Shown piece after piece: positions 6,932 through 32,570 of a stretch of DNA of 64,000 nt. Each line of letters starts with the position of its first letter. The stretch's first letter is position 1. The notes beneath the pieces were generated by a model that was given only the letters and a program-made list of their open reading frames with translations, searched no databases and was not told the origin of the DNA. A program made the translations under genes and the position numbers. This DNA is from an archaeon (GTDB taxonomy: Archaea > Nanobdellota > Nanobdellia > Pacearchaeales > DTIR01), in contig JAZDNM010000003.1 of NCBI GenBank assembly GCA_043799715.1, positions 28,903 to 92,902 on the forward strand, given 5' to 3'.

Positions 6932-7309
6932 ATGTTCAGGGGAAAAGAGATTCATGTAGTATTTTCAGAAGAAGCAAGAGAAAGTTTTGACGAACTAAAC
7001 AAAGTTGTTGGTGAAGAGATTAAGAAGGATATAATGGCTTCTGTGCACCAAACCCTGCTTAAGTCCATAAACAGGGCAAAGGAATTGCTAAGAGAAAATC
7101 CTTTTGCAGGCATTCAAATACCCAAGAGCCGAATCCCCCGCAAATACCTTTTAAAGTATAATGTTACAAACCTCTGGAAAATAAACCTTTCAGATTTTTG
7201 GAGGATAGTTTATACTGCTACTGGCAACCAAGTTGAAATCATGGCTTTTGTTCTTGACATAGTTGACCATAAAACTTATGATAAGATATTTGGTTATAAG
7301 GGGAAGTAG
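6932..7309 (+). CDS. RelE/ParE-superfamily toxin-like protein
   Basis: The C-terminal pattern NLWKINLSDFWRIVYTATGNQVEIMAFVLDIVDHKTYDKIFGY is typical of RelE/ParE-fold addiction toxins. It is translationally coupled to the small upstream wHTH ORF. Confidence 0.55.
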   Translation: MFRGKEIHVVFSEEARESFDELNKVVGEEIKKDIMASVHQTLLKSINRAKELLRENPFAGIQIPKSRIPRKYLLKYNVTNLWKINLSDFWRIVYTATGNQVEIMAFVLDIVDHKTYDKIFGYKGK

Positions 7310-7310
7310 A

Positions 7311-7338
7311 GTGCTGAGCAACACAAACATGAATAATC
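7311..7338 (+). repeat. Copy 3 (partial) of the LamG tail region
   Basis: gtgctgagcaacacaaacatgaataatc matches atgctcagcaatacaagcatgaacataa at 5098-5125 at about 20 of 25 leading positions. It starts 2 nt after the toxin stop, the same relative position as copy 2. Confidence 0.4.
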
Positions 7339-7494
7339 TCCCAATAAGTTAAACAAATGTCCAAAAAATGAAAAAATACCTAAAAATAGGTAAAAAGAGA
7401 AGTAATAATTACCTCACTTCAAAATAAATCACAAAAATATCCAATATCACTATCCTCATCACACTCTCCAGATAAAAAGCAGGGAAAGCGAGAG

Positions 7495-7528
7495 GCGCGA
7501 GAAATCCCGGGATTTCGAAATGTCTCGC
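7495..7528 (+). promoter_or_regulatory. Nested palindrome enclosing the start codon of the 7520 gene
   Basis: There is a perfect 16-nt palindrome gaaatcccgggatttc at 7501-7516. It is flanked by gcgaga (7495-7500) and tctcgc (7523-7528), and the ATG (7520-7522) sits in the internal bulge. Confidence 0.35.
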
Positions 7529-10198
7529 ATAAGCAAAAGGAACTTTGATTTAGCCGGCAGAAGCAAATTCCTTACTGGGGAGTATGCAGTTTTATCTGCT
7601 GCGTTTCTGGCTGTTTTCTTTGTTCTGCTTCTCGCTTTCCCTGAACTTGCCTATGCCAACAACACAGCATCAGGCATAAGGAGCTTTACAGTCGGCGGAT
7701 TGGTTTGCGAAGTAAACCAGACGTGCAGGGGGGGGTGGACTGACATGTTCCACGTTTCAAATATTTCTGATGCTCATGGGGAAATGGCAAACAGCTCTGA
7801 GTATGCCTATAAAGTATGCTGTGTCACGAATGAAACAGCTGTAAACTGGCTTGGGAACAACTGCAGCCAGAAATACTGGACAATGCTGCACATTTCAAAT
7901 GAGACAAACGCCCATGCAGAACTGCCGAATAATTCTCTTCTTGGAATTAACCTGTGCATAAATATGAATACTACAAGATATGTTTTCAACTGGACTTATA
8001 GCCAGAACTGCTCTGGATACGGAGACTGCATATTTTCCATAAGCAATGAGACAAATGCGCATTTTGCTGGCTGCGGCGCTGACACTTCATATGCCCTGAA
8101 ATTATGCGCTGACATAAAGTTTGACAGGACACTGCCTTCTGTGAATCTTCTTACTCCTGCAAACAACACAAATTTTTCAAGCGCATCAGTTGAGTTCAAT
8201 TATACTGTTGATGATGACAACAATATAGCCAACTGCAGCTTTATTGCAAATAGCACTGTAATAAGCACAAGCTCTTCAATAACAAAAATAGCAAACCAGA
8301 CATTCCTGCCTTCATTAAGCCAGGGAAGCTTTAACTGGACAGTCAACTGCACTGACAGCAACAGCAATACAGGAACAGCAGGAATGAGGAGACTAAGTAT
8401 AAGGGGCATGGACTGCGAAGTTGCAGCATCGTGCCAGTCAGGATATTATGACTTGCTGCATATGAATGACACTACAAACGCCCATGCAGAACTGCCAAAC
8501 AGAAGCATATTCAGCTATAAAATATGCTGCAAGAGCAATATTGCAGGCGCAAGCCTGACAGCAAACTGCTCATCAGCTTTTGGCAGCTCATGGACAATGC
8601 TCCATTTGTATCAGGAAACAAACTCCCATGTGGAAATGAACAACAGGAGCATTTACAATATTTCTGCATGCATGAACCTTAATTCAACTGCATATATCAT
8701 GTCATGCAGCTATAAAACAACATGCGCTTACGCAGAAACATGCGTTGCAGCGGTAAATCAGGAAACAAACTCCCATGTCTCAGGATGCGCTTCAGAGGCA
8801 TATGGAACAAGATTATGCTGCCAGATTGAAAAGGACACAACACCTCCTGTTGCAAGGTTAATCTCGCCTGCAAATGGAAGCACATGGGATGGCGATGCAA
8901 CAGCAACAGTAACATTCACTTATAATGTGACTGATGCGAACAACATCGTGAACTGCAGCCTTTTTGTTGATTCTGCATTTGACCAGGTTGACAATACAAT
9001 AACAAAAGACACAAGCCAGTCATTTTTGAAGGATTTTATGTTAAGCGCAAATCACACATGGTATGTGAAGTGCGTTGATGCTGCAAACAATATAGGGCTG
9101 CAGCCGTCATGGCAGTTTAATTTCTCGCGCTCTGTTATTCCTGAAACTCCAAACATAACATTTGTGTTTCCTACTCCTGCCAACAGCGAAAGGCAAGTCA
9201 AAAACTGGATTTATGTAAATGTTACAGTCAACACAACACTGAACAATGTCAGCGCATGCCTGCTTGGCTGGAATTCAGGAGCAGGAGAAGTAAACGAGAC
9301 AATGAGCAAGATTGGAACAGGCACAAATGCAACATGCTGGCTAAACAAGACAACAGTTGACGGCACAACTTACACATTCAGGGTTTATGCAAATGACACA
9401 ACAAACACATTTGGCATGTCCGGGCAGAGAAGCAATATTGAAAATTCAATTCCAGGCGCTGTTGCAGCCCTTGTTTATCCTAAAGTCAACCAGAGCACAA
9501 CAAACAGGACTTTGCAATTTAACTGGAGCGCCTCATCAGACAGCGAAGGGGATGCACTGACATATGAAGTGAATATCTCATGTTTCCCTGCATGCTCTGC
9601 TGACAACAGGAAAGTCAACTCTTCTGCAAACCAGAACTGGACAACGCTGGATTCAAGATTGAGATACTTCTGGGATGACACTTTCTATTACAACTGGACT
9701 GTGAGAGTATGGGATGGCTATGAAGTAAGCGACTGGACTGTGCCGCAGAATTTCACACTGGCAAGTTATGTTGCGCTTTCATTGCCCACAGAAAAAGTAA
9801 ATTTCAGCACGCTTACTCCGGGCTCAACCGAGGATACAACCTCAGATAATCCTGCGCCATTGGTATTGCAAAATGATGGAAACTCATTTGCTGATATCAA
9901 CCTTTCAATATTCCAGAATAACTGGCTTTGGACAAGCATAGCTGCAGCAGCTTCTGACTATTTCAGATACAAGATAGACAGTGTTCTAGGGGAATCAGGG
10001 GCGTTTAATGCAGCCGGCTCTCAAACAACACTGGCGCAGGTTCCTCAGTCAAATTTCACTGTTATTGACAACCTGAATTACACAGATGCATCTGATTCAG
10101 CAGAGATTGATGTGTCAATAACAGTGCCTCCGAATGAAGGTGCTGGAATAAAATCAAGCCAGATGGTATTTACCGGCTGGTATGTGAGGGAATTATGA
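7520..10198 (+). CDS. Large membrane-anchored or secreted surface protein with duplicated Cys-rich TNAH-repeat modules followed by Ig-like domains
   Basis: It has an N-terminal TM or signal segment. There are six copies of the motif (L/F)H.S/N.(E/T)TN(A/S)H.E...(N.S)...C(C), arranged as 2 x 3. Each triplet is followed by D.T.P.V.L..PAN and F.Y.V.D.NNI.NCS. N-x-S/T sequons are very dense. Confidence 0.7.
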   Translation: MSRISKRNFDLAGRSKFLTGEYAVLSAAFLAVFFVLLLAFPELAYANNTASGIRSFTVGGLVCEVNQTCRGGWTDMFHVSNISDAHGEMANSSEYAYKVCCVTNETAVNWLGNNCSQKYWTMLHISNETNAHAELPNNSLLGINLCINMNTTRYVFNWTYSQNCSGYGDCIFSISNETNAHFAGCGADTSYALKLCADIKFDRTLPSVNLLTPANNTNFSSASVEFNYTVDDDNNIANCSFIANSTVISTSSSITKIANQTFLPSLSQGSFNWTVNCTDSNSNTGTAGMRRLSIRGMDCEVAASCQSGYYDLLHMNDTTNAHAELPNRSIFSYKICCKSNIAGASLTANCSSAFGSSWTMLHLYQETNSHVEMNNRSIYNISACMNLNSTAYIMSCSYKTTCAYAETCVAAVNQETNSHVSGCASEAYGTRLCCQIEKDTTPPVARLISPANGSTWDGDATATVTFTYNVTDANNIVNCSLFVDSAFDQVDNTITKDTSQSFLKDFMLSANHTWYVKCVDAANNIGLQPSWQFNFSRSVIPETPNITFVFPTPANSERQVKNWIYVNVTVNTTLNNVSACLLGWNSGAGEVNETMSKIGTGTNATCWLNKTTVDGTTYTFRVYANDTTNTFGMSGQRSNIENSIPGAVAALVYPKVNQSTTNRTLQFNWSASSDSEGDALTYEVNISCFPACSADNRKVNSSANQNWTTLDSRLRYFWDDTFYYNWTVRVWDGYEVSDWTVPQNFTLASYVALSLPTEKVNFSTLTPGSTEDTTSDNPAPLVLQNDGNSFADINLSIFQNNWLWTSIAAAASDYFRYKIDSVLGESGAFNAAGSQTTLAQVPQSNFTVIDNLNYTDASDSAEIDVSITVPPNEGAGIKSSQMVFTGWYVREL

Positions 10199-10719
10199 GA
10201 ATGAAAATAATGAAGAATAACAGCAATCAAAAAATATTGAAAACGCAGATTGTGCTGAACATAGCAGCAATAATCATGTTTGTTGTAATCTTAAATTTTA
10301 GCATTTTGCTTTCCCCTTCGCAAGGGATGCAAACAAGAGGCAGTTCAGTGTCTTTCAGCTGGCTTGGATTTGCATCCTCTGCTCTTGTTGATGACAATCC
10401 TGATTTTACTTCTCCGATAATTGCAGAGAAGAACAGGCAGATTGAGCTGAAGCCGGGAACATATTACTGGTGCGTTCAGTTTATGGGCAAGTGCCTTGAC
10501 AAGCAGGAATTTGCGATAAACTCTGATGTTGTAATTGATGTCAAAACTGCGGTTATTGATAATGAAACAGCATACAGGATTGAAAACAAAGGCAACACAA
10601 GAGTAATGCTCAACATAATAGGAATGCTGACAGGAAAAGCAATACTTGAGCCGGATGCAGTGATTTACGAAAAAAATTCCTCTGATATAACAAAAATAAT
10701 CGCTTCAGAAAATGAATAA
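10195..10719 (+). CDS. Hypothetical membrane-anchored protein
   Basis: It has an N-terminal hydrophobic helix (IVLNIAAIIMFVVILNFSILL). It overlaps both neighbouring genes, which suggests an operon with the surface proteins. Confidence 0.5.
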   Translation: MRMKIMKNNSNQKILKTQIVLNIAAIIMFVVILNFSILLSPSQGMQTRGSSVSFSWLGFASSALVDDNPDFTSPIIAEKNRQIELKPGTYYWCVQFMGKCLDKQEFAINSDVVIDVKTAVIDNETAYRIENKGNTRVMLNIIGMLTGKAILEPDAVIYEKNSSDITKIIASENE

Positions 10720-11956
10720 AAACAATACAAAAACAATATTGGCTGCCTTGGCATTGATTTTGATAGCAGTTGCGATGACATCAAATGCCCTTGCTCTCGG
10801 CATTTCTCCTGGAAGATTGACGCTTAATTTTGAGCAGGGAATGCAGAGGGATGTGCAGATTACAGTAATTAACACAGAGCACAGGGATATGAATGTTGTT
10901 TTTGGCGCAACAGGGGAGCTTGCGAGCTATATCACATTGAAAAGCGATTCTCCGATAGTCCGCATAGGCGCATCAGAAAATGAAAAAACACTGACATACT
11001 CAGTTTCCCTGCCTGCAAAACTTACTCCTGGCGAGCACGAGGCAAAGATAACAGTAACTGAACTTCCTCCTGAAGGCGGCGCGGATGGAGTCCAGATAGG
11101 CGCAATGGTTGTTGTTGCATCGCAGTTGCTTGTAAAAGTGCCATATCCTTACAAATACGCAGCAATAGTGCTCAGTTCAGAGCATTTTGAAGCAGGCAGC
11201 TCTGGCAAATTTTATGTTGAAGTTGATAATCTTGGGGAGCAGGATTTGGTTGGCATGCAGGCGACAATTGAGATTATTTCAGCAGCAAACCAGAAAATAG
11301 CAGTATTAAAAACAGACAGCAAAACAATAAATTCAGGGACAAAAGGCGAGCTGCAGGCAGCATGGAAAGCAGATGTTAACCCTGGAAATTACAGGATTGT
11401 TGCAACATTGCCTTATGATGAGGGCAAGCTTGCGTCTTCTGAAAAAATAATCTCAGTTGGCTCACTGGTTGTTGATATTGTTGATATTTCTGTAAGAAAC
11501 TTCAGGCTGGGGGATATAGCCAAATTTGACATCACTGTTGAGAGCAAATGGAGCGAGAAAATCAGCGATATCTATGCGCAGCTCCAGATTCAGGATGAGC
11601 AGGAGAACTTGATTGCAAATGTCAAGACTCCTTCAATAGAGCTTTCTGCAATGGGCAGGAGCGTCTTGAATGCATACTGGGATACAGCAGGAGTAAAAGA
11701 AGGCGTGTATTCAGGAAAATTGCTGCTGAATTTTGCCAACCAGGTTCTTGAAAGGCAGCTAAAAACAGAAATAGCCCTGACTTCAATTAAAGTGGAGATT
11801 ATTGGAGTTGGAATATCCGCAAGGGCAGTATCAGCCGAGTCAGGAAAGCAGAATATGATGTTTGTGCTTGTTTTGGCAGTACTGCTCCTTGTTGTGATAA
11901 ACATAGCATGGTTTGTTTACTTTAATAAAAAGATAAAGAAAAAAAAGAGTGATTAG
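10712..11956 (+). CDS. Secreted beta-rich protein with a C-terminal TM anchor and basic tail
   Basis: It has a signal peptide (ILAALALILIAVAMTSNALA), a C-terminal helix (MMFVLVLAVLLLVVINIAWFVYF) and a KKIKKKK tail. Confidence 0.6.
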   Translation: MNKNNTKTILAALALILIAVAMTSNALALGISPGRLTLNFEQGMQRDVQITVINTEHRDMNVVFGATGELASYITLKSDSPIVRIGASENEKTLTYSVSLPAKLTPGEHEAKITVTELPPEGGADGVQIGAMVVVASQLLVKVPYPYKYAAIVLSSEHFEAGSSGKFYVEVDNLGEQDLVGMQATIEIISAANQKIAVLKTDSKTINSGTKGELQAAWKADVNPGNYRIVATLPYDEGKLASSEKIISVGSLVVDIVDISVRNFRLGDIAKFDITVESKWSEKISDIYAQLQIQDEQENLIANVKTPSIELSAMGRSVLNAYWDTAGVKEGVYSGKLLLNFANQVLERQLKTEIALTSIKVEIIGVGISARAVSAESGKQNMMFVLVLAVLLLVVINIAWFVYFNKKIKKKKSD

Positions 11957-12393
11957 ATGATTATTTCCTGCTCTGTTCTTGTTGCTTTATCATGCCAGGT
12001 TATCTCTGTCTGAAGGATATAATTTCCATGTTTGAGATTATCAGTGTTTATCCCTGCGCTGAATTTATGGCTTCCGATGTATCCTTTTCCCTCATAGCCA
12101 AGCTCTTTGTTTTTCCCTTCTACTAATTTGAAAGAGTCCTGTGCTTTGAAATCCTCCACAAAATCAAGGGCAGTTGAATTGTAAATCTCCATTGCAGTCT
12201 GATTGTTCTTCTCAAGAAAGATATGAATTACTGCGTTCGGAGGCAGGACTTCGCTTGCAGTTATTTTAATCTCTGCACTCATCACAGGAGCAGCAAAGAA
12301 ACCTGTAATCTGCGGGCGCACAATAACTGCCATTGCAATCATAACTGCCATTGTCAATGCAGGCAGCGCGTATGGAACACTTTTATGCACCAT
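11953..12393 (-). CDS. Hypothetical N-terminally anchored protein
   Basis: It is a 146-aa ORF with an N-terminal hydrophobic segment. It converges on the previous gene. Confidence 0.45.
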   Translation of the reverse strand: MVHKSVPYALPALTMAVMIAMAVIVRPQITGFFAAPVMSAEIKITASEVLPPNAVIHIFLEKNNQTAMEIYNSTALDFVEDFKAQDSFKLVEGKNKELGYEGKGYIGSHKFSAGINTDNLKHGNYILQTEITWHDKATRTEQEIII

Positions 12394-12455
12394 CCAGCAG
12401 CAAAATTGATTAAGTTTATAAATTTTCTCTGCTTAATCCTCAATAATAATTCAAA

Positions 12456-13496
12456 ATGATAAATCTGCTTTATTTCTTCCTGCCTGCAATACTCCTGCTT
12501 GGGGGCTTGGCTTCATTCTGGGATATAAGGCATGGAAGAGTGAAAAATTGGCTTGTGCTTTGGGCGCTGGCTTATTCTGCAGTTGTATATCTTCTGCTTG
12601 TTATCTATCTTAAAATCTCCGGCATGCCTGTTAATGAGGCATATATCTCAGAACTCCTGACAAACTTCCTGTCTGCTGTTGCGTTCAGCTTCCTGCTTTA
12701 TTCATTCAGGTTCTGGGCTCCGGGCGATGCAAAGCTTTTCATTGCTTTCTCTGCGCTGATACCCCTATCTTTTTATTCCAGTTTTCATATAAGCATATTC
12801 CCCTCTCTTGTCTTTTTCAGCAATACTTTTGTCATCTCAGGGGCTTATCTGCTGATAAATTCAATTGTGATGCTGTGCAAAGGCAAAAAGGGATTAGGAA
12901 AGGTTCTTGATGCCAGGGATTTTTTCAAGAAAATTTTAATCCTCGTAATCTCAATATTTTCCTTTTCGTGGATAACAAGCATGTTCCTGAGAAGCTTTCT
13001 TCCTGTTTCTGGCTTTTATTTGACATTGATTTCTTATTCCTGTGCTGCTGTGCTTAATATTTTCCTTGCCAGAATTGTTAAAAATAAGAAGATACTGTAT
13101 CTTTCTTATTTCTTGCTTTCCCTGTTTAATATGGTATTTTTTAGGGCATACACCTCCTTGCTGAATGTATTAAGCTTCTCGCTATTTTTCTCTATTTTCA
13201 AAACAGTTGCAATAGATATGCAGGCAAGGATAAATATATCAAAGGCAAGAATAGGCAGTTTAATGCCTTACAGCCAGATTATGCAGCCACTTTTCCATAA
13301 CAAAAAGGAAATATGCAAAAAAGGGGAGGTTATCAACAGAGCCAAAATAAAAGAGATGAAAAGCGCTTTCAGCCTGGACAGAAAAATACTGGTTAAAGAC
13401 AATTCCGCCCTTGCGCCTTTCATGTTTATTGGGGCTCTTGTTACAATCCTGATAAAGGGAGAAGTAATAACATGGCTCCTTGCACTGATAAGGTAA
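12456..13496 (+). CDS. A24-family prepilin/preflagellin peptidase with a C-terminal extension
   Basis: It is polytopic and carries the two aspartyl motifs SFWDIRHGRVKNW and FWAPGDAKLFIAF, characteristic of type IV prepilin peptidases. Confidence 0.7.
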   Translation: MINLLYFFLPAILLLGGLASFWDIRHGRVKNWLVLWALAYSAVVYLLLVIYLKISGMPVNEAYISELLTNFLSAVAFSFLLYSFRFWAPGDAKLFIAFSALIPLSFYSSFHISIFPSLVFFSNTFVISGAYLLINSIVMLCKGKKGLGKVLDARDFFKKILILVISIFSFSWITSMFLRSFLPVSGFYLTLISYSCAAVLNIFLARIVKNKKILYLSYFLLSLFNMVFFRAYTSLLNVLSFSLFFSIFKTVAIDMQARINISKARIGSLMPYSQIMQPLFHNKKEICKKGEVINRAKIKEMKSAFSLDRKILVKDNSALAPFMFIGALVTILIKGEVITWLLALIR

Positions 13497-13497
13497 A

Positions 13498-14163
13498 ATG
13501 AACAAACAAATGCGCTTTTTTGCCAGGGATGATGATGTTTTCGATTTAACTTCCAATTTAGTTAAATTTTCCAGAATGATGATTGAGCTTAAAGTGCCTG
13601 TTATTTATGGAATAATTCCGGGAAAAATAGAAAAAAAGCTTTCGGATTTTCTCTCAAAATTAAAAAAAGACAATGATAGTCTTGTGCATCTTGCGCAGCA
13701 CGGCTGGATGCATGCCAACTATGGAAAAACAAGAAAATATGAGTTTGGAATGTCAAGGGATTATGAAACCCAGAAAAAGGATATTCTGCAGGGGCTTGGT
13801 ATCATGCAGAAATTATTCGGATTCAAAAAGAGAATCTTTATTCCCCCTTATAATCATCTGAACAAGGCAACTGTCAGGGCTCTTGAGGGGCTGAATTTTG
13901 AATTTATTTCAACAGATTTGCCTGCAGCGCGCTTGGGAAAAATCAGGAACTTGCCTGCGATTATAAATTTTGAAACATTTACAGACAATGGCGTAAAGAA
14001 GAAAACATTAAGGGAGCTGCTGCTTGATTTTGCAATTCTAAGCAGAAAGACGAATTCATTTGGGATATATTTTCACCATAGGACTCTGGAAAAAAGGGAT
14101 TTTGAGACAATCAGGAAATTTATGGAGATACTGAAAGGAAAAAAAGTTAAATTTGTTTTGTAA
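13498..14163 (+). CDS. Polysaccharide deacetylase-like (NodB/CE4-like) protein
   Basis: It has divergent NodB-type motifs: ARDDDV, HGWMH and IPPYNH. It starts 2 nt after the peptidase stop. Confidence 0.5.
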   Translation: MNKQMRFFARDDDVFDLTSNLVKFSRMMIELKVPVIYGIIPGKIEKKLSDFLSKLKKDNDSLVHLAQHGWMHANYGKTRKYEFGMSRDYETQKKDILQGLGIMQKLFGFKKRIFIPPYNHLNKATVRALEGLNFEFISTDLPAARLGKIRNLPAIINFETFTDNGVKKKTLRELLLDFAILSRKTNSFGIYFHHRTLEKRDFETIRKFMEILKGKKVKFVL

Positions 14164-15182
14164 TGGACAGTAAAATGCAGAAAATCTCGGCAAAGAACAT
14201 AACATTTGAAATAACAAATGAATGCAATCTGAAATGTTCTGCCTGCCCTATGTGGCAGGAAGCTGAAAGAAAGAATCTTGGCAAAGATGCGATATTGGGG
14301 GTTCTGACATCGGGAATATTAAGGCATCCTCTTGAATCAGTGACATTGACAGGAGGAGAGCCGTTTATGCATCCGGAATTTAATGAAATTTTCAAGTCTC
14401 TTGTGTTGCTGAAGATGAAAAAGCAACTGAGGAAAATAGGGATATCCTCAAACGGCTATGACACTGCCAGAATTCTGGATTTTTTAAAGGAAAATAAGGA
14501 TTATGCAAGAGATATCAGTTTGTTCATCAGCCTTGACGGGTTTGGCAGTGTGCATGATAAACTCCGGGGCAGAAATAATGCCTTTGAGAAGACAATGAAC
14601 ACTATAAACGCTGTGAACAGTGAATTTGAAGATGTGAATCTAACCCTGAAATTCACAATCTGCAGTGAGAATGCAAATGAAATACCAAAAGTTTATGATT
14701 TTTGCAGCAAAATAGGCATAAATCTCCTTTTTAAGCTGCTGCAATCCTCTAATTCTGCGCATGGACTTACTCCCAAATACCGCAACAGCAGCAGGCAGGA
14801 CTTCATGAAAAAAATGCTTGATAATAAAAGCAGGGAGAAAATAGCAAAAGAGCTTCTCAGAATTATTGCTTCTGAGAAGAATTCAGGCGCATCAATTGTA
14901 AATCTGGATTACTTGTCTGCCCTTGTAGATTATCTTCAGGGAGAATTAGAGATAAAATCCTGCAAAACCCCTGAAAATTACCTTTTTATTGACTGCACAG
15001 GGAATATTTACCCTTGCTTGTATCAGGAGCCAATTGCGAATTGCCTTGATAAGGACTGGGAAAAGGAATTTTATAAAAAGAGATATGCAGAGATGATAAA
15101 TAATGCAGAAAAAGGCATATGCCCGAAATGCCTTGCTTATCATGGGTATTTAAAATACTGGAATTTCAAAAATGGCAATTAA
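14163..15182 (+). CDS. Radical SAM protein with a SPASM/twitch-like C-terminal Cys cluster
   Basis: It has the CX3CX2C motif (TNECNLKCSACPMW). The C-terminus reads CKTPENYLFIDCTGNIYPC...CPKC. Confidence 0.8.
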   Translation: MDSKMQKISAKNITFEITNECNLKCSACPMWQEAERKNLGKDAILGVLTSGILRHPLESVTLTGGEPFMHPEFNEIFKSLVLLKMKKQLRKIGISSNGYDTARILDFLKENKDYARDISLFISLDGFGSVHDKLRGRNNAFEKTMNTINAVNSEFEDVNLTLKFTICSENANEIPKVYDFCSKIGINLLFKLLQSSNSAHGLTPKYRNSSRQDFMKKMLDNKSREKIAKELLRIIASEKNSGASIVNLDYLSALVDYLQGELEIKSCKTPENYLFIDCTGNIYPCLYQEPIANCLDKDWEKEFYKKRYAEMINNAEKGICPKCLAYHGYLKYWNFKNGN

Positions 15183-16260
15183 CGAGAAAGCAGGGAACAT
15201 AAAAAGGGCAGAGGGCATAACAAAGAACAGGGCTCTTGTCGGCCCTGAAATAGCCCAGATAACAGCAGTAAGAAAATGCAACCAGTCATGCAAATACTGC
15301 TGGATTTATTCTGATGTGGCCAATAGATACTGCAAACTATATAATAATTTCTATATGAAATTCCGCAAAAATCAGGATTTTCCCATTTCCAAGTTCAAAG
15401 AGGTTGTTGATGACCTTGCTGAGATAGGAACTCCTACTCTGTCAATAAGCGGGGATGGCGAGCCATTCATGCATAAAAATCTTGGGGAAATGGTTCGCTA
15501 TGCTCATGAAAAAGGGCTTTCAGTAGGAATCCAGACAAATGGGACTATTTCCCTGGAGAATTTTAAGGAAATTGGCATGATTTCATTCCTGAATATTCAT
15601 GTTCCAAGCCTGAATGAAAAAAACTCGAGGCTTCTGCAGGCATCAGGAATTTCTTATCTTGATAGGGTTATAAGGAATATTCAGTGGATTTCCAGAATGG
15701 CTGAACATAGAACAATGCCCAAGATTGAACTTGGGCTTGTAGTCAACAAGATAAACTGCAATGAGATAATTGATTTCTTTGATTTTGCACTGAAGTATAA
15801 CATTGATTCAGTATGCCTTAAGAAACTCCGCTCTTTTAATCATGTTGATGAACTGTGCCTTGATAAGGGAGATATAGAAAAAATAAGGGACAGCGTAAAA
15901 TTTCTCCTTGGTTCAGGCAAATCCAGAAAAGTCAAGAACAACCTCGCAGCATTCCTCAAGGAATTAAACACTGAGGAAAGCAGAAAGCGCCAGAAATGCC
16001 TTGTAGGATATTACAGGGTTTATATAAATCTGGATGGAAGCACAAGCTTGTGCTGCTGGAACCCTTTCCGGTCATTCGGGAATGTTTTCAAGAAAAGATT
16101 AAAGGATATCTGGTTTTCAAAAAAGGCAGATAATCTTAGAGGAAAGATGCAGTCTATAAATACAGCAAAAGTTCTGTGGAGAACATGCAGAACCTGCCCT
16201 TTAAGCACTGTTGACTTGAACAAGAAACTATGCAATATCTCTGAGTACTTTAGTTCCTAG
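15172..16260 (+). CDS. Second radical SAM protein with a SPASM-like C-terminus
   Basis: It has the CX3CX2C motif (RKCNQSCKYCW). The C-terminus reads CLVGYYRVYINLDGSTSLCCWNP...CRTCP. It overlaps the previous rSAM gene by 11 nt. Confidence 0.75.
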   Translation: MAINEKAGNIKRAEGITKNRALVGPEIAQITAVRKCNQSCKYCWIYSDVANRYCKLYNNFYMKFRKNQDFPISKFKEVVDDLAEIGTPTLSISGDGEPFMHKNLGEMVRYAHEKGLSVGIQTNGTISLENFKEIGMISFLNIHVPSLNEKNSRLLQASGISYLDRVIRNIQWISRMAEHRTMPKIELGLVVNKINCNEIIDFFDFALKYNIDSVCLKKLRSFNHVDELCLDKGDIEKIRDSVKFLLGSGKSRKVKNNLAAFLKELNTEESRKRQKCLVGYYRVYINLDGSTSLCCWNPFRSFGNVFKKRLKDIWFSKKADNLRGKMQSINTAKVLWRTCRTCPLSTVDLNKKLCNISEYFSS

Positions 16261-17429
16261 CTGAAGATTTCCTTCCTTATTATTTTTTGGGAATTAAACC
16301 ACTCTTTTTTCATTTTTATAATATGTTTTTCACTGATTTTTTTTCTTATCTCTTCTGCCAGCCTGCCTGCGTCAATATTGCTGTATTCAATAATTGAACT
16401 ATCAGCTTTGTCTTTCAGAAGCAAAGCCCTGTAATACTGCTCTATCCCTGCTTTGCTTATGTTGTCAAATTTTGGGATGATTATTGATTTTTTTCCAAGG
16501 AGCATTGTTTCTGCAGAAGTGTTGTAGCCAGCCATGCTTACAGACAAGTCGCATGCATTGAGCAGCCTGCTGAAATCTGATGAAAATTTTATAAGTTTCA
16601 TATTTTTCCTGCCTTTAGCCATCTTCCTGAATATCTTTTCTTCTTTTGCAGTTGAGGATATCCCATAGACAACAATAAAGAAGAAATTATCCCCGAGGAT
16701 TTCTGACGCTTTTATTGCGCTTGAGATTATTTTTGGGTAGATAACTCCGCCTCCCCTGCTGGCAAGTATAATCTTTTGGTTTTTGCCTATGCCAAAAGCA
16801 TTCCTGAGACTATCATCTCTTCTTATTTTGGGCTTTGCTGTCAGATAATTTGTAAATGTAATCTTGGATGCAAGTTTGCTGAACACACTGTTATAGAAAT
16901 CAAGGATGTCATCTCTTCCTATCAGATTAAGCGCTTTCCTTATATAAGCCAAGTCAAGGTTTTCAGGGCAGTGAATCAAAATTTTGTCATAATATTCTGA
17001 AAATTTTAATATTCTCTCATTTTCAATTACAGGATATCCCACGCTTGCATAAATCTTTATTGAAGGATTAATCTGCCTGAGATGCCTTATTATTGAGGAT
17101 ATCTCAATTGAAAAGATTCTCCTGCCAAAAGGGAAAAATTCTGTTATAAACACATCAGGGCTGAAATCTTTTAACTTGTCCGTGATAAATTTTATTCTCT
17201 TTTTTATTCTTTCAATGCTTATTCTGGCTCTTCCTCCCTTGAACACCTCTTTTCCTGCTATGCTCCACGGAACATTTATTATTTCTGCATGAAAGTCTGG
17301 AATCTTTTGTGCCTTTCCTGCCTGTATAACAAGAATTTCATTTCCGGGCTTCAAAACATTAGCAAGGTTCCTTGTTCTTGATGTATGCCCAAGTGATTCA
17401 TAATGAGTATAATACAATGCGATTCTCAT
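16257..17429 (-). CDS. Glycosyltransferase (GT-B fold, GT1/GT28-like)
   Basis: The N-terminus MRIALYYTHYESLGHTSRTRNLA and the C-terminal nucleotide-sugar binding half (ASRGGG...MAGYNT) resemble MurG/MGT-type enzymes. Confidence 0.55.
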   Translation of the reverse strand: MRIALYYTHYESLGHTSRTRNLANVLKPGNEILVIQAGKAQKIPDFHAEIINVPWSIAGKEVFKGGRARISIERIKKRIKFITDKLKDFSPDVFITEFFPFGRRIFSIEISSIIRHLRQINPSIKIYASVGYPVIENERILKFSEYYDKILIHCPENLDLAYIRKALNLIGRDDILDFYNSVFSKLASKITFTNYLTAKPKIRRDDSLRNAFGIGKNQKIILASRGGGVIYPKIISSAIKASEILGDNFFFIVVYGISSTAKEEKIFRKMAKGRKNMKLIKFSSDFSRLLNACDLSVSMAGYNTSAETMLLGKKSIIIPKFDNISKAGIEQYYRALLLKDKADSSIIEYSNIDAGRLAEEIRKKISEKHIIKMKKEWFNSQKIIRKEIFS

Positions 17430-18529
17430 TTCTTCCTAAAAAACTCCCTTACTGCAGCGGAAATCTGCCTGATTTCATCCTCTTTTATAAAATGGAAAAA
17501 TGGAAGATGCAGGCATCTTTTGTAATAATCCTCTGCTCCTGGAAATTTCCTATTCTGGTTTTCTGAAAATATGCAGATTGCTGGATAAGGCAATTCTGCT
17601 AAGATATTTCTTTTTTTCAGGAAGTCATGCAGCATGTTCCTTTCATCCTCGCCTTCAAGCTGAATTACTAATCTTGTGTAAAGCCCTTCATTCTTGTTTT
17701 TTGAGTTGATAATCCTAATTTCATTTATACCGCTTAGTTCCTTGAAGTATAACTCTTTCATCTTGTTATGGCGCTCCTGCATCTTGCTGAAATACCTCAG
17801 CTGGACTGCAATGCTGCTTATCGCAGGAAGCGAAATTCTTGAAATTCCCTTGAGCTCCTTTGCCTGCATCAATCTGCTTATTTTTTCTGCATTCTCCTCT
17901 GATTTGAATGTGAGCATCCCGCCCCCGCTGCTGCCTATTGAAGAGATGAATTTTTCATTTGAGAAGCTGAAAATTGCAAAATCGCCTAAACTCCCAAGAT
18001 ACTTGTCATCAATCTTGTTTCCTATTGCCTGGCAGGCATCTTCTAAAAGAACGAGATTGTTTTTTTCTTTTATTTTAACAAGCTCTTTCATATTGCAGGC
18101 ATTTCCAAACATATGAGCTGCAACAATAGCCTTTGTATCCCTGTTGACAAGTTTCTCTGCCTTTTCTGTGTCAATTGCAAAATTTTCAGGATTTACATCG
18201 CACAGCCTCATTTTTATATCAGGGAAGCATGAGAAAGAGCTGGTTAAGCTGTAATATTCTGCTGCAGGAACAATAACCTCTGCTTTTTTTCCTCTGCTGT
18301 TTAAACTTAACAACCATAAGAAAAGAGTGAATGCCTGCGTGCCTGAACCAACGGATTTTGAATGAATAAACCCGAATTTCCTGCTGAATTCATCTTCGAG
18401 GGCAGCAGAATATTTTTGGATGTCATTTGCTCCATTTAAGCCCCTTATTGCCCTGCTGAGCTCTGCGAAATATTTTTTTTCGAGAATTTTGTCTATTCTC
18501 AGGTTGTCATGCCTTGCTTTCCACACCAT
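17426..18529 (-). CDS. DegT/DnrJ/EryC1/StrS-family PLP-dependent sugar aminotransferase
   Basis: It has the motifs GSGTQAF, EDACQAIG and GDFAIFSFSNEKFIS (Lys in the SF..K context). Confidence 0.8.
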   Translation of the reverse strand: MVWKARHDNLRIDKILEKKYFAELSRAIRGLNGANDIQKYSAALEDEFSRKFGFIHSKSVGSGTQAFTLFLWLLSLNSRGKKAEVIVPAAEYYSLTSSFSCFPDIKMRLCDVNPENFAIDTEKAEKLVNRDTKAIVAAHMFGNACNMKELVKIKEKNNLVLLEDACQAIGNKIDDKYLGSLGDFAIFSFSNEKFISSIGSSGGGMLTFKSEENAEKISRLMQAKELKGISRISLPAISSIAVQLRYFSKMQERHNKMKELYFKELSGINEIRIINSKNKNEGLYTRLVIQLEGEDERNMLHDFLKKRNILAELPYPAICIFSENQNRKFPGAEDYYKRCLHLPFFHFIKEDEIRQISAAVREFFRKK

Positions 18530-18559
18530 AAGCCTTAAAAATAATTCAAATTTAAATAT

Positions 18560-19741
18560 ATGATGGTTGAGGTTGAGGCTGCAAGAGATGAAAGGGAGAT
18601 TATAGCGCAGTTCAACATTCTATTGAAGAATTTCTCAGGTTTCAATAATCTGGGCGAAGTCAGGGAGATAAGAAAAATTGAGGACATAGATAGAATACCA
18701 ATGACAACAAGGCAGAGCCTTGAATCACTGGGAATAAAGAATGCTCCTATTCAACCTTTATGCATGCATGTGACAAGCGGCTCTTCAGGCAAAAATGTCC
18801 CTGTATTCTACTCTGAAAAATCATGGCAAGTTCTTGTGGAAAGGACAAAAAAGCTTTTTGAATTTATGGAAATTTCAAAGAAAGACATAGTCCTTAACCT
18901 GTTTGAATACGGGCTTTCAAATGAGGGGCTTGCAATAGACAATGCGCTGGCAAGTGCGGGGATAGCTGCATTTCCCTGCGGAAATCTTGAAAAGGAAAAG
19001 AAGTATCTTGCCAGGGACTTGATTAAAAAGATAAAGCCAACAGCCCTTATCTCTTTTCCTTCATTTATCTTTGACCTTATTGAATTGAATGCTGACTTGT
19101 CATCGATAAAGAAGATTATGCATGCAGGCAGCTTTGTATCAAGGGAGTTCTTTGATTTTATGCGCAGCAGGATAGATGCTGTTTTTTACAATTGCTATGG
19201 CTGCAACGAAGTCGGCCCTATTTCAATCAGCAGGACTTTTGAAGATGAATTCTCGCTTCTTATTGATAAAGGGCTTTACATAGAGGTTCTTGATGACAAT
19301 AGCAAGCCGCATGAAATAGGAGAAGGCAGGATTTTAATCACTGATTTGTATAATCTTTCAACCCCAATGATAAGATATTTTCTTGGTGACAGGGTTAAAA
19401 TAATAAAGCAGGATGGAAAAAAATATATAAAAGTCCTGAAAAGAGAGGACTCCTACTCCAAAATAAACGGCGCTGTAATGCCTGTAGGTCTGCTTGTAAA
19501 GACATGCATGGAACAAATAGGGCATGACCACTTTTCAATACTTGTGAATTTTTCAAAATCCTCAATGAAGGACGAGACTGTAATCTATCTGCTCAAAAAA
19601 GATGCAGGCAAGGCATCAGCACTGCAGAAAGAGTTCAACGAGAAACTTAATCTCTTCCCGCAAATCAAGCTGATAGGAAATATGCCCAGGACATTCACAG
19701 GCAAGATAAGGAATTTTATTGATGCAAGAAAACCAGAGTAA
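18560..19741 (+). CDS. Adenylate-forming ligase of the PaaK/CapK/F390-synthetase family
   Basis: It has the AMP-binding motif TSGSSGKNVPVFYS, and its size and architecture match phenylacetate-CoA ligase-like enzymes. Confidence 0.7.
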   Translation: MMVEVEAARDEREIIAQFNILLKNFSGFNNLGEVREIRKIEDIDRIPMTTRQSLESLGIKNAPIQPLCMHVTSGSSGKNVPVFYSEKSWQVLVERTKKLFEFMEISKKDIVLNLFEYGLSNEGLAIDNALASAGIAAFPCGNLEKEKKYLARDLIKKIKPTALISFPSFIFDLIELNADLSSIKKIMHAGSFVSREFFDFMRSRIDAVFYNCYGCNEVGPISISRTFEDEFSLLIDKGLYIEVLDDNSKPHEIGEGRILITDLYNLSTPMIRYFLGDRVKIIKQDGKKYIKVLKREDSYSKINGAVMPVGLLVKTCMEQIGHDHFSILVNFSKSSMKDETVIYLLKKDAGKASALQKEFNEKLNLFPQIKLIGNMPRTFTGKIRNFIDARKPE

Positions 19742-19750
19742 ACCTTCTTC

Positions 19751-20662
19751 TTATTTTACAAGAGAATATACATCCATATAGCTGAGGGACTTGTCAGAGC
19801 ATAGCGCCTTTAATTCCTCTGTTTTAATCAGGGAGCATTTTTCATAATTATTCTCCTGCCGGACATAGCTTATTATTGACAAGTCCATTGAAATCCTGTT
19901 GAATAGGTCATTGCAGTCTTTTCTTATAATGCCCCTGCATGCTTCAGAATACCCTATCCCCAAATTCTTGTTTGAGCATAAATTCTCATCGTTCTTAGAG
20001 ATTGCAAGCCTTTCTGTGAAATATCTCTCGCAGTCTTCATTTGAAAATTCAAGGCATCTTGATGCATTAACAAGAATCGCGCTGCATATGGCTTCTGAAC
20101 TGCCTGTTAATCCTATGCATGATTTTTCCTGCACAGCCCTGCATATTTCTTCATCAACCAAGCCCCCCTCTCCTGCTTCGTCTTTAAGCGTGCTGCAGTC
20201 TATATTTGAATATTTCTCTATATCCGCGACTATTGCTTTATAGTCATTGTAATCTGCGATGCACCACTGCCTTGAAATTGAGTTGTTTATGAAATTGCAC
20301 TTGCTCTCATTATCAGAAACAACCGCCTCACAGCTGACAACATTTGCAACCCACCTTATGTCCTTTTCAACAAGATGATACCTCAAACTCTCAACATCCC
20401 CTGAAACAACATTTTCAAAAGGAACAGGTATTTCAATAATCTTCACTCTTGGCATAAAAATAAAGATTGCAGCTATAATAAGTATGATTGAGATTCCTGC
20501 TGCAAGAAATATCATGCTGTTGTTCTTTGAGATGGAGTTTATTGCCTCTCTGGCATCTTTCTCAGGATATCCTTTTTTTCCAATTTCCTCTTTTAACTGC
20601 GCTATGGAAATCCCTTTTCTAAGTCCATTTTTTATGTAATTCACAAGAACTTGGTTAACCAT
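19751..20662 (-). CDS. Single-pass membrane protein with a Cys-rich extracytoplasmic domain
   Basis: A small N-terminal helical domain is followed by a TM helix (MIFLAAGISIILIIAAIFIF) and then about 16 Cys residues. It lies 12 nt downstream of the His/Ser-rich peptide gene on the same strand. Confidence 0.5.
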   Translation of the reverse strand: MVNQVLVNYIKNGLRKGISIAQLKEEIGKKGYPEKDAREAINSISKNNSMIFLAAGISIILIIAAIFIFMPRVKIIEIPVPFENVVSGDVESLRYHLVEKDIRWVANVVSCEAVVSDNESKCNFINNSISRQWCIADYNDYKAIVADIEKYSNIDCSTLKDEAGEGGLVDEEICRAVQEKSCIGLTGSSEAICSAILVNASRCLEFSNEDCERYFTERLAISKNDENLCSNKNLGIGYSEACRGIIRKDCNDLFNRISMDLSIISYVRQENNYEKCSLIKTEELKALCSDKSLSYMDVYSLVK

Positions 20663-20674
20663 CTTTTTTTGAAT

Positions 20675-20935
20675 TTAGTATTCTGTCTGCGAGTGGCTTG
20701 CATGATGTGAATGCGTTGCTGTTGCTGTCCCGCTGGCATAACCCTGGCTTAAGTCATTGCTGTGTGTTGCCTGGCTGTGCGCAGCAGCAGGCTGCGACAT
20801 GAGTATTATATTTGCGAGTATAACTCCTGCTTTTATTATCTTATCCTTAGAAATAGTGCCTTCCTCGTCATTCAGGAAATTTTTAAGCTCCTGCTTAATC
20901 TTTGGAAAGAATTTCTTTCCCGCCTCTTTTGCCAT
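20675..20935 (-). CDS. Small His/Ser-rich protein, candidate radical SAM substrate (HxsA-like)
   Basis: This 86-aa protein has a basic N-region, the hydrophobic segment AGVILANIILMSQPAAA, and the tail HSQATHSNDLSQGYASGTATATHSHHASHSQTEY. It starts 5 nt after the rSAM stop. Confidence 0.55.
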   Translation of the reverse strand: MAKEAGKKFFPKIKQELKNFLNDEEGTISKDKIIKAGVILANIILMSQPAAAHSQATHSNDLSQGYASGTATATHSHHASHSQTEY

Positions 20936-20940
20936 TATAT

Positions 20941-22338
20941 CTAATCGCTAATCCAATTTTTAAATATTTCCCTGTTCTCTTTCCCCTCAGCCATTTTCTC
21001 AAATATATACCTGAACTGCCCTGTGTAAATTATGTGCCTCATGCTGCAGCTTATCTTAGGCAGGACATTGCCCTGCTCGCTGTGGTTTATTACAGGGCAT
21101 GTTCCAATCCACGGAAGGAATGCAGAAAGGGGAGAGTAAAGATTCATTGCAGAAGAGCCAGCCATGTAAAACATGTTAGGACTGCCAAGAACCTCTTCAT
21201 ACCTGTTATTCTCAACATTTCCAAGCTTGAACAAGTCATTCCCAGTCATTCTTGCCTCATCGCATGTGAAAACATCGCCGTTTTCAGAGTACAATATCTG
21301 GCTTCTGCCTGCCCCACAAGGGCTCATTAGTTCAGTGTACAAAGCATCTTTTTTCAGCAGAATTTTCTTCAGCATTATAACAGAAGTTGTTTCTTTTATT
21401 TTTGTTCCTTTTTTGTTCAGTTCAAGAATGTAATCAAGTGCTGAACGCCAGAATTTTAGGAACTCTTCTGCTGTGTAGCCAATCTCTTTCCAGTTTTCTT
21501 TTGCAACTCCGAGATAATTGAGAAATCTCATATGAATGCTGTCAAAGCCCTGCTTTGCATACTCATCAACTATCTCTTTCCAGTATGGAAGCGAATTTCT
21601 TGTTATTGTTGGCAGGGCTCCGACAATTTTCCTGCTGTTCTTTTTTATTGACAGGGCATTTATTTTTCTTATTCCGCTTATGACATCATCATAACTGCCC
21701 TTGCCTGAAATATAATGCCGGTTCATGTCATGAAGGGATTTCTGCCCGTCAAGCGATGTGCATACAGTTATATCATTATCAAGGATAAAATCAATATGCT
21801 CTTCTTTTATTGATGTCAGGTTGGAGACAATTGTGATTTTCAAGTCCTTGTTTTCTATCTTGTTTATTTTCCTTGCCTCTTCTGCAATAAACTTGAGAAC
21901 ATCCCAGTTAAGCAGCGGCTCTCCGCCCTGAAATTCTATTGTTATTGCTTTTGAAGGGCTCTGGAAAATAAAATTGAGAACTTTTAATGCTGTGTCCCTG
22001 CTCATTTTCTCGATTTTTCTGTCCTTGGCATGGCAGTAAACACAGCCAAGGTTGCATTCAGGAGTCAGGCTTACTATATGCAGTGATGGACCCAAAAAAA
22101 GATTCGCATTAAGGTTCCTGTAATTTTTTATAATCCTGTTTATATTTTCCTTGCTTGCTATTATGTCCTTTTCATGAAGTTTTGTCTCCAGTTCCTTGCT
22201 GAGATTTCTGCTTAATAGGCATTTCCATTCCTCTTCATCAAGCATCGCCCATGAGCCGAAGAATGTTGTTACAAGATGCTTATCTTTTATCTTTTCTTCA
22301 TTAAACGGCAGCAGAATATGCTGTTCTTCAAGCGCCAT
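20941..22338 (-). CDS. Radical SAM/SPASM-type peptide maturase candidate (anSME/HxsB/HxsC-like)
   Basis: An extension of about 90 aa precedes the CX3CX2C motif (TPECNLGCVYCHA). Auxiliary-cluster cysteines lie downstream (SPCGAGRSQILYSENGDVFTCDE, GTCPV...ISCS). Confidence 0.8.
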   Translation of the reverse strand: MALEEQHILLPFNEEKIKDKHLVTTFFGSWAMLDEEEWKCLLSRNLSKELETKLHEKDIIASKENINRIIKNYRNLNANLFLGPSLHIVSLTPECNLGCVYCHAKDRKIEKMSRDTALKVLNFIFQSPSKAITIEFQGGEPLLNWDVLKFIAEEARKINKIENKDLKITIVSNLTSIKEEHIDFILDNDITVCTSLDGQKSLHDMNRHYISGKGSYDDVISGIRKINALSIKKNSRKIVGALPTITRNSLPYWKEIVDEYAKQGFDSIHMRFLNYLGVAKENWKEIGYTAEEFLKFWRSALDYILELNKKGTKIKETTSVIMLKKILLKKDALYTELMSPCGAGRSQILYSENGDVFTCDEARMTGNDLFKLGNVENNRYEEVLGSPNMFYMAGSSAMNLYSPLSAFLPWIGTCPVINHSEQGNVLPKISCSMRHIIYTGQFRYIFEKMAEGKENREIFKNWISD

Positions 22339-22567: not shown

Positions 22568-22576
22568 CTTGCTTTA

Positions 22577-32417: not shown

Positions 32418-32570
32418 TGGGGACAGGGCGAATCGAACGCCCAACCGACGGTTTCTTCGCTATTGTAGTTTCTTTCTACTTCCAAGCTTTTTAATTTCTC
32501 TTTCCAAGGTTTCTCTTTTGAAAGAGAAAGCTTTCTGGAGCCGTCCGTTTTACCATTAAACTATGCCCCC
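32418..32570 (-). tRNA. tRNA-Trp (CCA) with an intron of about 81 nt at the canonical 37/38 position
   Basis: Manual fold: acceptor GGGGGCA/TGTCCCC, anticodon stem GACGG/CCGTC, loop CTCCAGA, T arm GGGCG-TTCGATT-CGCCC, discriminator A. The intron spans about 32453-32533. Confidence 0.85.

Follow-up and report, generated by a model that had tools for sequence, protein, structure and literature searches.

Linkage of a divergent A24-type peptidase family to His-Xaa-Ser genes in DPANN archaea and CPR-like bacteria

In this work, we analyse a 64,000-nucleotide stretch of contig JAZDNM010000003.1 (hereafter the window), from an archaeon of the Pacearchaeales, in which an operon of four genes (12456-16260) encodes an A24-type membrane peptidase, a NodB-like deacetylase and a pair of radical S-adenosylmethionine (rSAM) enzymes, rS1 and rS2. 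We show that this quartet is one arm of a conserved cluster of roughly 10.5 kb (12456-22960) that comprises the peptidase, a His-Xaa-Ser (Hxs) cassette and a set of tailoring genes. Comparison with related sequences indicates that the peptidase family most likely serves a variant of the Hxs system found in DPANN archaea and in bacteria of the Candidate Phyla Radiation (CPR). The variant is widespread and apparently undescribed, has its own candidate protease and tailoring module, and offers concrete genes with which processing of the precursor can be tested. It takes Hxs beyond Pseudomonadota into DPANN archaea and CPR-like bacteria, groups about whose surface biology and virus defence little is known. 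A literature search of incomplete coverage returned nothing tying A24 peptidases, DPANN or ribosomally synthesized and post-translationally modified peptides (RiPPs) to Hxs, and nothing that connects prepilin peptidases with radical SAM enzymes, RiPPs or DPANN.

Hxs was first predicted by Haft and Basu in 2011 (as cited in PMC13128918). In bacteria, HXS (HxsD-HxsB-HxsC-HxsA) is an antiphage system that blocks the entry of phage DNA, with HxsA acting in the periplasm (Li et al., Nat Commun 2026; PMC13128918), and its activity was shown for a bacterial system expressed in E. coli (PMC13128918). The N-terminal processing of bacterial HxsA is non-canonical, goes beyond simple removal of a signal peptide and requires HxsB, HxsC and HxsD; the work did not identify a protease for it, and the mature protein bears a +8 Da change in its SHRSS motif (PMC13128918). 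The published survey places 99.7% of HXS systems in Pseudomonadota (PMC13128918).

A peptidase, tailoring genes and a His-Xaa-Ser cassette in one cluster

The cluster and its border comprise the following features, the coordinates of the quartet being those of the list of open reading frames (ORFs).

12415..12423 (+): candidate archaeal TATA box TTTATAAAT, about 37 nt 5' of the peptidase ATG, read from the sequence
12456-13496 (+): A24-family (GxGD-type) aspartyl membrane peptidase, 346 aa; Pfam PF01478
13498-14163 (+): NodB/CE4-like deacetylase (DUF2334), 221 aa; Pfam
14163-15182 (+): radical SAM enzyme rS1, 339 aa; Radical_SAM 68.1 bits, CxxxCxxC motif
15172-16260 (+): radical SAM/SPASM enzyme rS2, 362 aa; Radical_SAM 59.0 bits, SPASM 41.5 bits (cutoff 21.5)
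16257-17429 (-): GT28-like (MurG/MJ1255-type) glycosyltransferase, 390 aa, transcribed towards the quartet (convergent); Glyco_tran_28_C 48 bits
17426-18529 (-): DegT/DnrJ/EryC1-type pyridoxal phosphate sugar aminotransferase, 367 aa; Pfam 183 bits
18560-19741 (+): PaaK/F390-synthetase-like adenylate-forming ligase, 393 aa; Pfam AMP-binding and NCBIfam PaaK-like, all below cutoff
19751-20662 (-): Cys-rich single-pass membrane protein, 303 aa, encoded last in the Hxs operon; no family match
20675-20935 (-): HxsA3-type His-Xaa-Ser precursor, 86 aa; NF038309 51.7 bits (E 5.6e-14), short of its cutoff of 65
20941-22338 (-): HxsB radical SAM/SPASM maturase, 465 aa; TIGR03978 over the full length at 404.1 bits (cutoff 370)
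22328-22567 (-): HxsD-like small protein, 79 aa; NF038315 34 bits (E 2.4e-8), short of its cutoff of 41
22577-22960 (-): HxsD, 127 aa, encoded first in the Hxs operon; TIGR03976 44.5 bits (E 1.5e-11), short of its cutoff of 50
23017-24435 (-): RtcB tRNA-splicing ligase, a housekeeping gene at the cluster border

The quartet is co-directional, in line with an earlier reading of the DNA alone (the sequence-only reading) that had taken it for an operon, and its NodB-like gene and its A24 peptidase with a C-terminal extension are upheld by Pfam matches above cutoff and, for the extension, by an AlphaFold2 (AF2) model. That reading also described tight junctions. The overlaps stand, with the deacetylase and rS1 genes sharing 1 nt (TAATG) and the rS1 and rS2 genes 11 nt (rS2 ATG at 15172, rS1 TAA at 15180-15182), but the spacer between peptidase and deacetylase, read from the DNA as TAA, A, ATG, is 1 nt and not 2 nt long. 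The element TTTATAAAT, which may be an archaeal TATA box, lies in the 62-nt divergent intergenic region upstream of the peptidase gene.

The Hxs cassette (19751-22960) occupies the opposite strand, 3.5-6.7 kb downstream of the end of the quartet at 16260. Orthologues of its HxsB stand directly downstream of the peptidase in other genomes (E 1e-125 to 1e-163), and the position of the HxsD-like gene between HxsD and HxsB is conserved across loci. No HxsC (TIGR03977) was found in the window, where the HxsC/HxsC4-like proteins of other DPANN loci match only HxsB. PADLOC 2023, which holds no Hxs model, gave only generic viperin-level rSAM matches.

We accept the window peptidase as a divergent A24-family enzyme; its Pfam match (Peptidase_A24, PF01478, residues 14-131) is marginal, at 28.4 bits with a cutoff of 26.5. 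Its candidate catalytic residues are D23 and D91, the latter within WAPGDAKLF, and both are invariant in family members (18 of 18 sequences, then 76 of 76). The family motif around the second Asp is W[TSA][AP][GA]D[AG]KLF, the window version (APGD) having the first Gly of GxGD substituted. The AF2 model (predicted local distance difference test (pLDDT) score 79.8) has about ten helices, and in it the C-terminal extension consists of extra transmembrane helices, a soluble domain of roughly 65 aa and a final helix; the soluble domain is on the same side as the basic loops, so that by the positive-inside rule this domain and both Asp residues would be cytoplasmic. Homologues are only about 30% identical yet full length (330-410 aa), and several are tagged PF06819 Arc_PepC, the archaeal A24 C-terminal domain. 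An exhaustive profile search of 1.84 billion entries returned 940 family representatives, which are clusters at 50% identity, at E<=1e-30 and 2074 at E<=1e-10.

The peptidase family adjoins Hxs genes across genomes

We found that most of the peptidase family adjoins Hxs genes. We fetched 80 non-redundant loci from GTDB species representatives with the peptidase alignment and compared every ORF with those of the window, taking true HxsB in the synteny counts as a match at E<1e-60. The loci come mostly from Woesearchaeota/Nanoarchaeota metagenome-assembled genomes, with some labelled as CPR bacteria. The first three homologue neighbourhoods all contained rSAM genes and an 'HxsD' domain, and the dominant order, on one strand, is peptidase, HxsD, small protein, rSAM enzyme of roughly 460 aa, small protein. 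HxsD follows the peptidase immediately 3' on the same strand in 40 of the 74 loci that have a downstream gene, with a median gap from stop to start of 23.5 nt (range -4 to 195), and true HxsB lies at most three genes away in 37 of the 62 loci that have three downstream genes. Counted over whole loci, some rSAM gene is present in 60 of 80 and Hxs genes in 55 of 76. On a neighbour-joining tree of 76 peptidases, the 55 Hxs-linked members fall into both deep clades and the exceptions are scattered. The sequence-only reading had made its idea, an added maturation step coupled to the peptidase, depend on the linkage being present in related genomes; the peptidase-rSAM linkage does recur there and is not fortuitous.

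The quartet as such is a lineage-specific arrangement that we saw again only in one locus, L167. L167 was found by anchoring on rS1 and has clear orthologues of 11 of the 12 cluster genes of the window in the same layout (peptidase, extra rSAM, deacetylase, rS1, rS1 paralogue, DegT, GT28, ligase, Cys-rich protein, HxsA, HxsB, HxsD-like, HxsD), at protein identities of 21-48%. The gene without a clear orthologue is rS2, whose slot is held by the rS1 paralogue and for which the extra rSAM is only a distant match. The flanks of L167 are unrelated to those of the window, with a transketolase on one side and a DNA ligase on the other, and a kinase-like gene also lies upstream. In these two loci the tailoring genes stand between the peptidase and an inverted Hxs operon, whereas in most relatives the peptidase directly precedes HxsD.

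Loci combining the peptidase with an HxsA3-type precursor also occur in CPR-like bacteria. HxsB-containing loci are further present on about a dozen IMG/VR contigs (L172-L179, L189 and L193), some of them canonical bacterial HxsD-B-C-A loci. The canonical ones lack the peptidase, and the HxsA of one (L177) has an ordinary Sec signal; a peptidase-family gene stands beside HxsB on three contigs (L172, L173 and L193; 3864-9007 in L172/L173), and the HxsA of L172/L173 has a long leader of the HxsA3 type. This occurrence fits either mobile, defence-like behaviour or errors in provirus boundaries in IMG/VR.

Members of the family also occur in other settings. The 1.84-Mb Woesearchaeota chromosome OY970338.1 encodes two paralogues, one (L034) in a standard Hxs operon and the other (L005, 10001-21116) without Hxs genes; its neighbours there are a PMT_2 glycosyltransferase and five genes for radical SAM enzymes, of which some are B12-binding. 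At five CPR-like loci the peptidase homologue follows a tandem array of six to ten rSAM paralogues of roughly 300 aa (CNNxCxFC), namely at L070 (1011-11200), L081 (4125-11176), L082 (2416-11185), L073 (1823-11137) and L059 (1163-10960); in three of them (L070, L081 and L082) bacterial type IV pilin genes come after it, and L070 encodes pilus-assembly ATPases and, separately, a canonical PilD as well.

The HxsA3 leader as candidate substrate

The substrate of the peptidase is most likely the 86-aa HxsA3 and not a pilin, as far as the sequences indicate. The sequence-only reading had coupled the rSAM pair to a maturation step for pilins, surface proteins or their glycans. In that form the idea is not supported: the conserved partner of the peptidase is not an rSAM pair that modifies pilins but the RiPP-like His-Xaa-Ser cassette, which that reading overlooked.

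HxsA3 is built of a conserved, basic leader (..FFPKIKQELKNFLNDEEGTISKDKIIKAG), then a short hydrophobic segment that ends in AAA, and lastly the core AHSQATHSNDLSQGYASGTATATHSHHASHSQTEY; the repeats HSQ, HSN, HSH and HSQ stand within the last 35 residues. We aligned 31 of 39 distinct HxsA3 sequences, the window included, on the EEGKISK motif, which gave the leader consensus lPKiKKKIsSFLtkEEGKISKesLlK.G. A Gly stands at the boundary between leader and hydrophobic segment in 29 of the 31, and in the window the boundary reads ...DKIIKAG/VILANIILMSQPAAA/HSQ. HxsA3 resembles a class III (pilin-type) signal in that its leader is basic, Gly occupies -1 and a hydrophobic stretch comes next. The peptidase may carry out class III-type cleavage after Gly/Ala at the cytoplasmic face, for which the candidate substrates are HxsA3 and a 174-aa protein encoded at 10195-10719.

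No second precursor with an EEGKISK-type leader was found in the window or in peptidase loci without Hxs genes. We also considered the protein encoded after HxsA as a class III substrate and rejected it, as it is mostly a plain signal-anchor protein, the L167 version (MRKG/LAIT) being an exception. Homologues of the Cys-rich membrane protein follow HxsA in L001 and L031, with a weak match in L167, and many loci have a non-homologous single-pass protein of 230-340 aa in this slot.

Tailoring enzymes associated with the Hxs cluster

From domain content and neighbourhood, we conclude that rS1, rS2, the deacetylase and their companions are probably glyco-tailoring enzymes associated with the Hxs cluster; the resulting sugar may end up on HxsA3. 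The deacetylase matches DUF2334 (43.5 bits, cutoff 26) and Polysacc_deac_1 (26.9 bits, cutoff 23.1), shows by eye in its translation the Asp/His motifs RDDD, HGWMH and IPPYN, and is 36% identical to its L167 orthologue, as is the GT28-like protein to its own. Homologues of the DegT protein lie within the Hxs loci L001, L013, L023 and L026 and in L167, and those of the ligase in L001, directly beside the peptidase (E 3e-58), L090 and L167.

The sequence-only reading gave both rSAM enzymes C-terminal auxiliary-cluster cysteines. This agrees with rS2, which has the CxxxCxxC core and a SPASM match above cutoff; for rS1, which has six Cys within its last 70 or so residues, a SPASM or twitch domain is a candidate, its SPASM score of 19.0 bits being under the cutoff of 21.5. 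rS1 is rare, with only 8 relatives at E<=1e-10, and is 44% identical to its L167 orthologue; its nearest solved relative is the peptide maturase SkfB (E 9e-16), and its top NCBIfam matches, PTO1314 (74 bits) and N_Twi (66 bits), are both far below cutoff. For rS2, no homologue above 26% identity was found among 5.8 billion clusters. Its best relative is in L001, beside HxsA, DegT and GT4, and distant ones occur in rSAM/SPASM arrays adjoining GT4 and PMT_2 glycosyltransferases.

Against NCBIfam equivalogs, all matches of rS1 and rS2 are 3- to 15-fold below cutoff (bits scored against cutoff: AlbA 52/850, PqqE 38/381, MoaA 56/284, NirJ 58/515), which places both outside the characterised clades (anSME, BtrN-like, PqqE, AlbA, NirJ/Ahb and MoaA). 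Membership of a characterised cofactor clade, which the sequence-only reading had named as a test of its idea, is found for neither, and on that ground we rejected a role in cofactor biosynthesis. We likewise rejected rS1 and rS2 as the missing HxsC, since rS1 scores 52 bits against the TIGR03977 cutoff of 267.9 and ranks 14th and rS2 is not listed.

Homologues of the tailoring genes occur, in varying combinations, in or after the Hxs operons of nine loci (L001, L008, L013, L023, L026, L028, L031, L079 and L090). Directly after HxsA in L008, an 869-aa protein (7116-9725) fuses an rS2-like rSAM/SPASM domain, GT2 and a deacetylase, and the next gene (9694-12294) encodes an 866-aa fusion of GT28 with an rS1-like rSAM/SPASM domain, in which the rS1 homologue is full length. 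Further fusions after HxsA are a 610-aa rSAM/SPASM-GT2 protein in L079 (5180-7012) and a 656-aa DUF2334-asparagine synthase protein in L031 (11046-13016). These fusions tie the rSAM enzymes, glycosyltransferases and deacetylase to one pathway and would imply new glycopeptide chemistry; of the maturation of pilins, surface proteins or their glycans that had been proposed from sequence, they fit the glycan option. L090 also has a 1868-aa deacetylase-containing ORF beside its PaaK-like ligase.

Comparison with known systems

To judge from gene content, the window cluster would work most like an Hxs system. It shares with bacterial HXS an HxsB above the curated cutoff, a candidate HxsD (sub-cutoff, in conserved position), a candidate precursor with C-terminal His-Xaa-Ser repeats that would require N-terminal processing and export, the gene order D-(x)-B-A, and relatives on IMG/VR contigs, as is often the case with mobile defence genes. 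Unlike bacterial HXS, the window lacks HxsC, has an extra HxsD-like gene and encodes a short precursor of the HxsA3 type, with a long basic leader and a hydrophobic segment in place of a plain Sec signal and a peptidoglycan-binding domain. It further adds a dedicated A24 peptidase and a six-gene glyco/rSAM tailoring set, and its hosts are DPANN archaea and CPR-like bacteria.

RiPP pathways with rSAM/SPASM enzymes (sactipeptide/ranthipeptide maturases such as SkfB and PapB) and the glycocin GT2 enzymes offer a second comparison. As in these, a small precursor with a leader and a small accessory protein, HxsD, are encoded beside the maturase, HxsB matches PapB at 151 bits and rS1 matches SkfB, and GT2 domains are fused to maturase-like rSAM enzymes in relatives of the window; the core, however, is His/Ser-rich and not Cys-rich. 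Our literature search found no report of leader removal by an intramembrane aspartyl protease in RiPPs.

The peptidase itself resembles the A24 peptidases that have no methyltransferase domain (FlaK, PibD, EppA, CpaA/TadV) in its Pfam match, its polytopic membrane topology, its two invariant Asp residues, of which the second belongs to a GxGD-like motif with KLF after it, and the Arc_PepC tag on the C-terminal region of its homologues. It differs in being very distant from them (a marginal Pfam score and no PDB sequence match), in having four more transmembrane helices and a predicted cytoplasmic domain, and in adjoining rSAM peptide-maturation genes and not pilus or archaellum assembly genes. 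In L070, canonical PilD coexists with a peptidase of the window type.

A proposed pathway and its alternatives

The linkage described above suggests the following pathway. HxsA3 would be made with a basic leader of roughly 36 residues, which HxsD or the HxsD-like protein and HxsB would bind in the cytoplasm, where HxsB would use radical chemistry to alter the core, which is rich in His and Ser. Sugars are probably added and remodelled by the tailoring module, either on this core, which is also Ser/Thr-rich, or on a glycan associated with it, and the probable steps are N-acetylhexosamine transfer, de-N-acetylation, rSAM-dependent oxidation or rearrangement, transamination and acylation. The hydrophobic segment of HxsA3 would then enter the membrane, and the A24 peptidase, with its Asp pair at the cytoplasmic face and its extra domain in the cytoplasm, would cut the leader after G36 (KAG/VIL). 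The modified HxS tail would end up outside the cell, either anchored in the membrane or freed by a second cut at AxA, and might act at the envelope, possibly against viruses by analogy with bacterial HXS, which is the weakest step. We infer leader cleavage by the peptidase, peptide glycosylation and a role in envelope defence from the observed linkage, and put the chance that this combined explanation holds only slightly above even. Should the relation between peptidase and leader hold, it would provide the first case of an A24 (prepilin-type) peptidase that removes a RiPP leader.

A bolder version, which we offer tentatively and regard as doubtful, is that the A24 family was recruited in DPANN archaea and CPR bacteria as a dedicated RiPP leader peptidase, whose peptide undergoes radical SAM modification and glycosylation by rSAM-glycosyltransferase-deacetylase enzymes, is then cleaved at a pilin-like Gly and ends up exposed on the surface of these episymbionts as an envelope barrier or attachment factor, an archaeal counterpart of the HXS antiphage system. 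If true, this version would further hint at which kind of protease the bacterial HXS model lacks.

Several results weigh against the proposed pathway. FlaK (3s0x_B) is the sole protease among the Foldseek matches of the peptidase, and the match is weak (probability 0.54, E 2.7; target-normalised TM-score 0.49 over 146 columns), while a search of PDB sequences with the peptidase profile gave no meaningful match. Class III signals are expected to have a basic residue at -2; that of HxsA3 stands at -3 and is thus not textbook, its hydrophobic stretch is short (12-18 aa), and an AxA-like site after this stretch could be cleaved by signal peptidase I. The boundary Gly does not track the presence of the peptidase, being conserved also where none is nearby, and is therefore non-discriminating. 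rS1 and rS2 are not HxsC-like, and no direct tie of the tailoring enzymes to the peptide was found. The linkage is also weaker in the reverse direction: a profile hidden Markov model finds a peptidase-family gene in 16 of 77 HxsB-anchored metagenome loci, and in only 6 of the 18 that have at least 4 kb on both sides, which makes the peptidase a frequent but facultative component of HxsA3-type systems.

The peptidase might instead be an ordinary prepilin or class III signal peptidase for adjoining pilin-like and large, heavily glycosylated surface proteins, whose glycans the tailoring genes would make or alter, with Hxs a neighbour only through the clustering of surface genes in small DPANN genomes. 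One source labels its homologues CpaA, and in 12-16 of 80 loci a divergent operon upstream of it encodes proteins with class III signals (family 4, KKSQ/ITLFIILG) and giant secreted or Cys-rich proteins (families 3 and 5). The window has comparable genes, for the 174-aa protein at 10195-10719 (+) has a class III-like N-terminus (...NQKILKTQIVLNIAAIIMFVVIL) that makes it a possible conventional substrate, an 892-aa protein at 7520-10198 (+) has 51 N-x-S/T sequons, and the gene of a 1681-aa Laminin_G_3 protein is a third of this kind; such genes, here and in the 12-16 loci, lend a pilin role some plausibility. A pilin-like 113-aa protein likewise lies at the edge of L167, and distant rS2 relatives stand beside GT4 and PMT_2 protein glycosyltransferases with no visible Hxs genes. 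The Hxs link, however, is several-fold commoner than the pilin-like one (40/74 adjacent and co-directional, at the short gap given above) and is operonic, whereas the surface-protein genes are usually divergent from the peptidase. L167, moreover, holds peptidase, tailoring and Hxs genes together with a transketolase and a kinase-like gene, not surface proteins, on its upstream flank, the tailoring-domain fusions sit directly after HxsA, and in the CPR-type locus L070 it is the separate canonical PilD that goes with the pilus genes. We therefore hold a purely pilin-directed role to be unlikely. A peptidase-rSAM adjacency without functional meaning would agree with the rarity of the exact four-gene order and the near lack of rS2 homologues, yet it is contradicted by the frequency of rSAM (60/80) and Hxs genes (55/76) beside the peptidase, by a gene order kept across two deep clades and across archaeal, CPR-like and IMG/VR contigs, and by the retention of the cluster in L167 at 21-48% identity, and we give it practically no credence.

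It is also conceivable, if rather improbable, that the peptidase belongs to the Hxs system and that the deacetylase, rS1, rS2, GT28, DegT and PaaK proteins form an independent pathway for a free amino-sugar or lipid-linked glycan, of aminoglycoside-like logic, inserted between the peptidase and the Hxs operon. The enzyme set fits such sugar chemistry (glycosyltransfer, deacetylation, rSAM dehydrogenation, transamination and acylation), the quartet arrangement is confined to the window and L167, neither rS1 nor rS2 is HxsC-like, and the relatives of rS2 go with glycosyltransferases and not with precursor peptides. On the other side, members of the set recur in or after the Hxs operons of nine loci (L001 to L090) and are translationally coupled to the peptidase in the window, and the nearest solved relative of rS1 is a peptide maturase. 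GT2 domains fused to rSAM/SPASM maturases, moreover, are of the type that glycosylates peptides in glycocins.

Other features of the window

Upstream of the cluster, a 1681-aa protein (151-5196, +) has seven Laminin_G_3 (concanavalin-like lectin) domains and, from its listed TTG start, no signal peptide. It is followed by a nucleotidyltransferase (MNT)/HEPN pair and a YoeB-like toxin (5278-5895, 5786-6367 and 6932-7309, all +), toxin-antitoxin-type modules that are frequent in defence islands and that lie here just upstream of the surface-protein genes. The 892-aa protein at 7520-10198 (+) is secreted and has six copies of a [LF]H.SNETNAH[AV]E-like motif and Big_7 Ig domains, and its homologues (family 3) directly adjoin the peptidase in 16 of the 80 related loci.

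Outside the cluster on the other side, just past RtcB, a 399-aa protein (24533-25732, +) shows weak similarity to the GalT/HIT family. Rfam identifies six tRNA genes of 83-159 nt (45181-45321 (+), 45374-45491 (+), 46517-46650 (+), 42190-42348 (+), 32418-32570 (-) and 38719-38801 (-)), none of which was detected in the window by ARAGORN. From their lengths, most or all are apparently intron-bearing, and the window also encodes the RtcB tRNA-splicing ligase.

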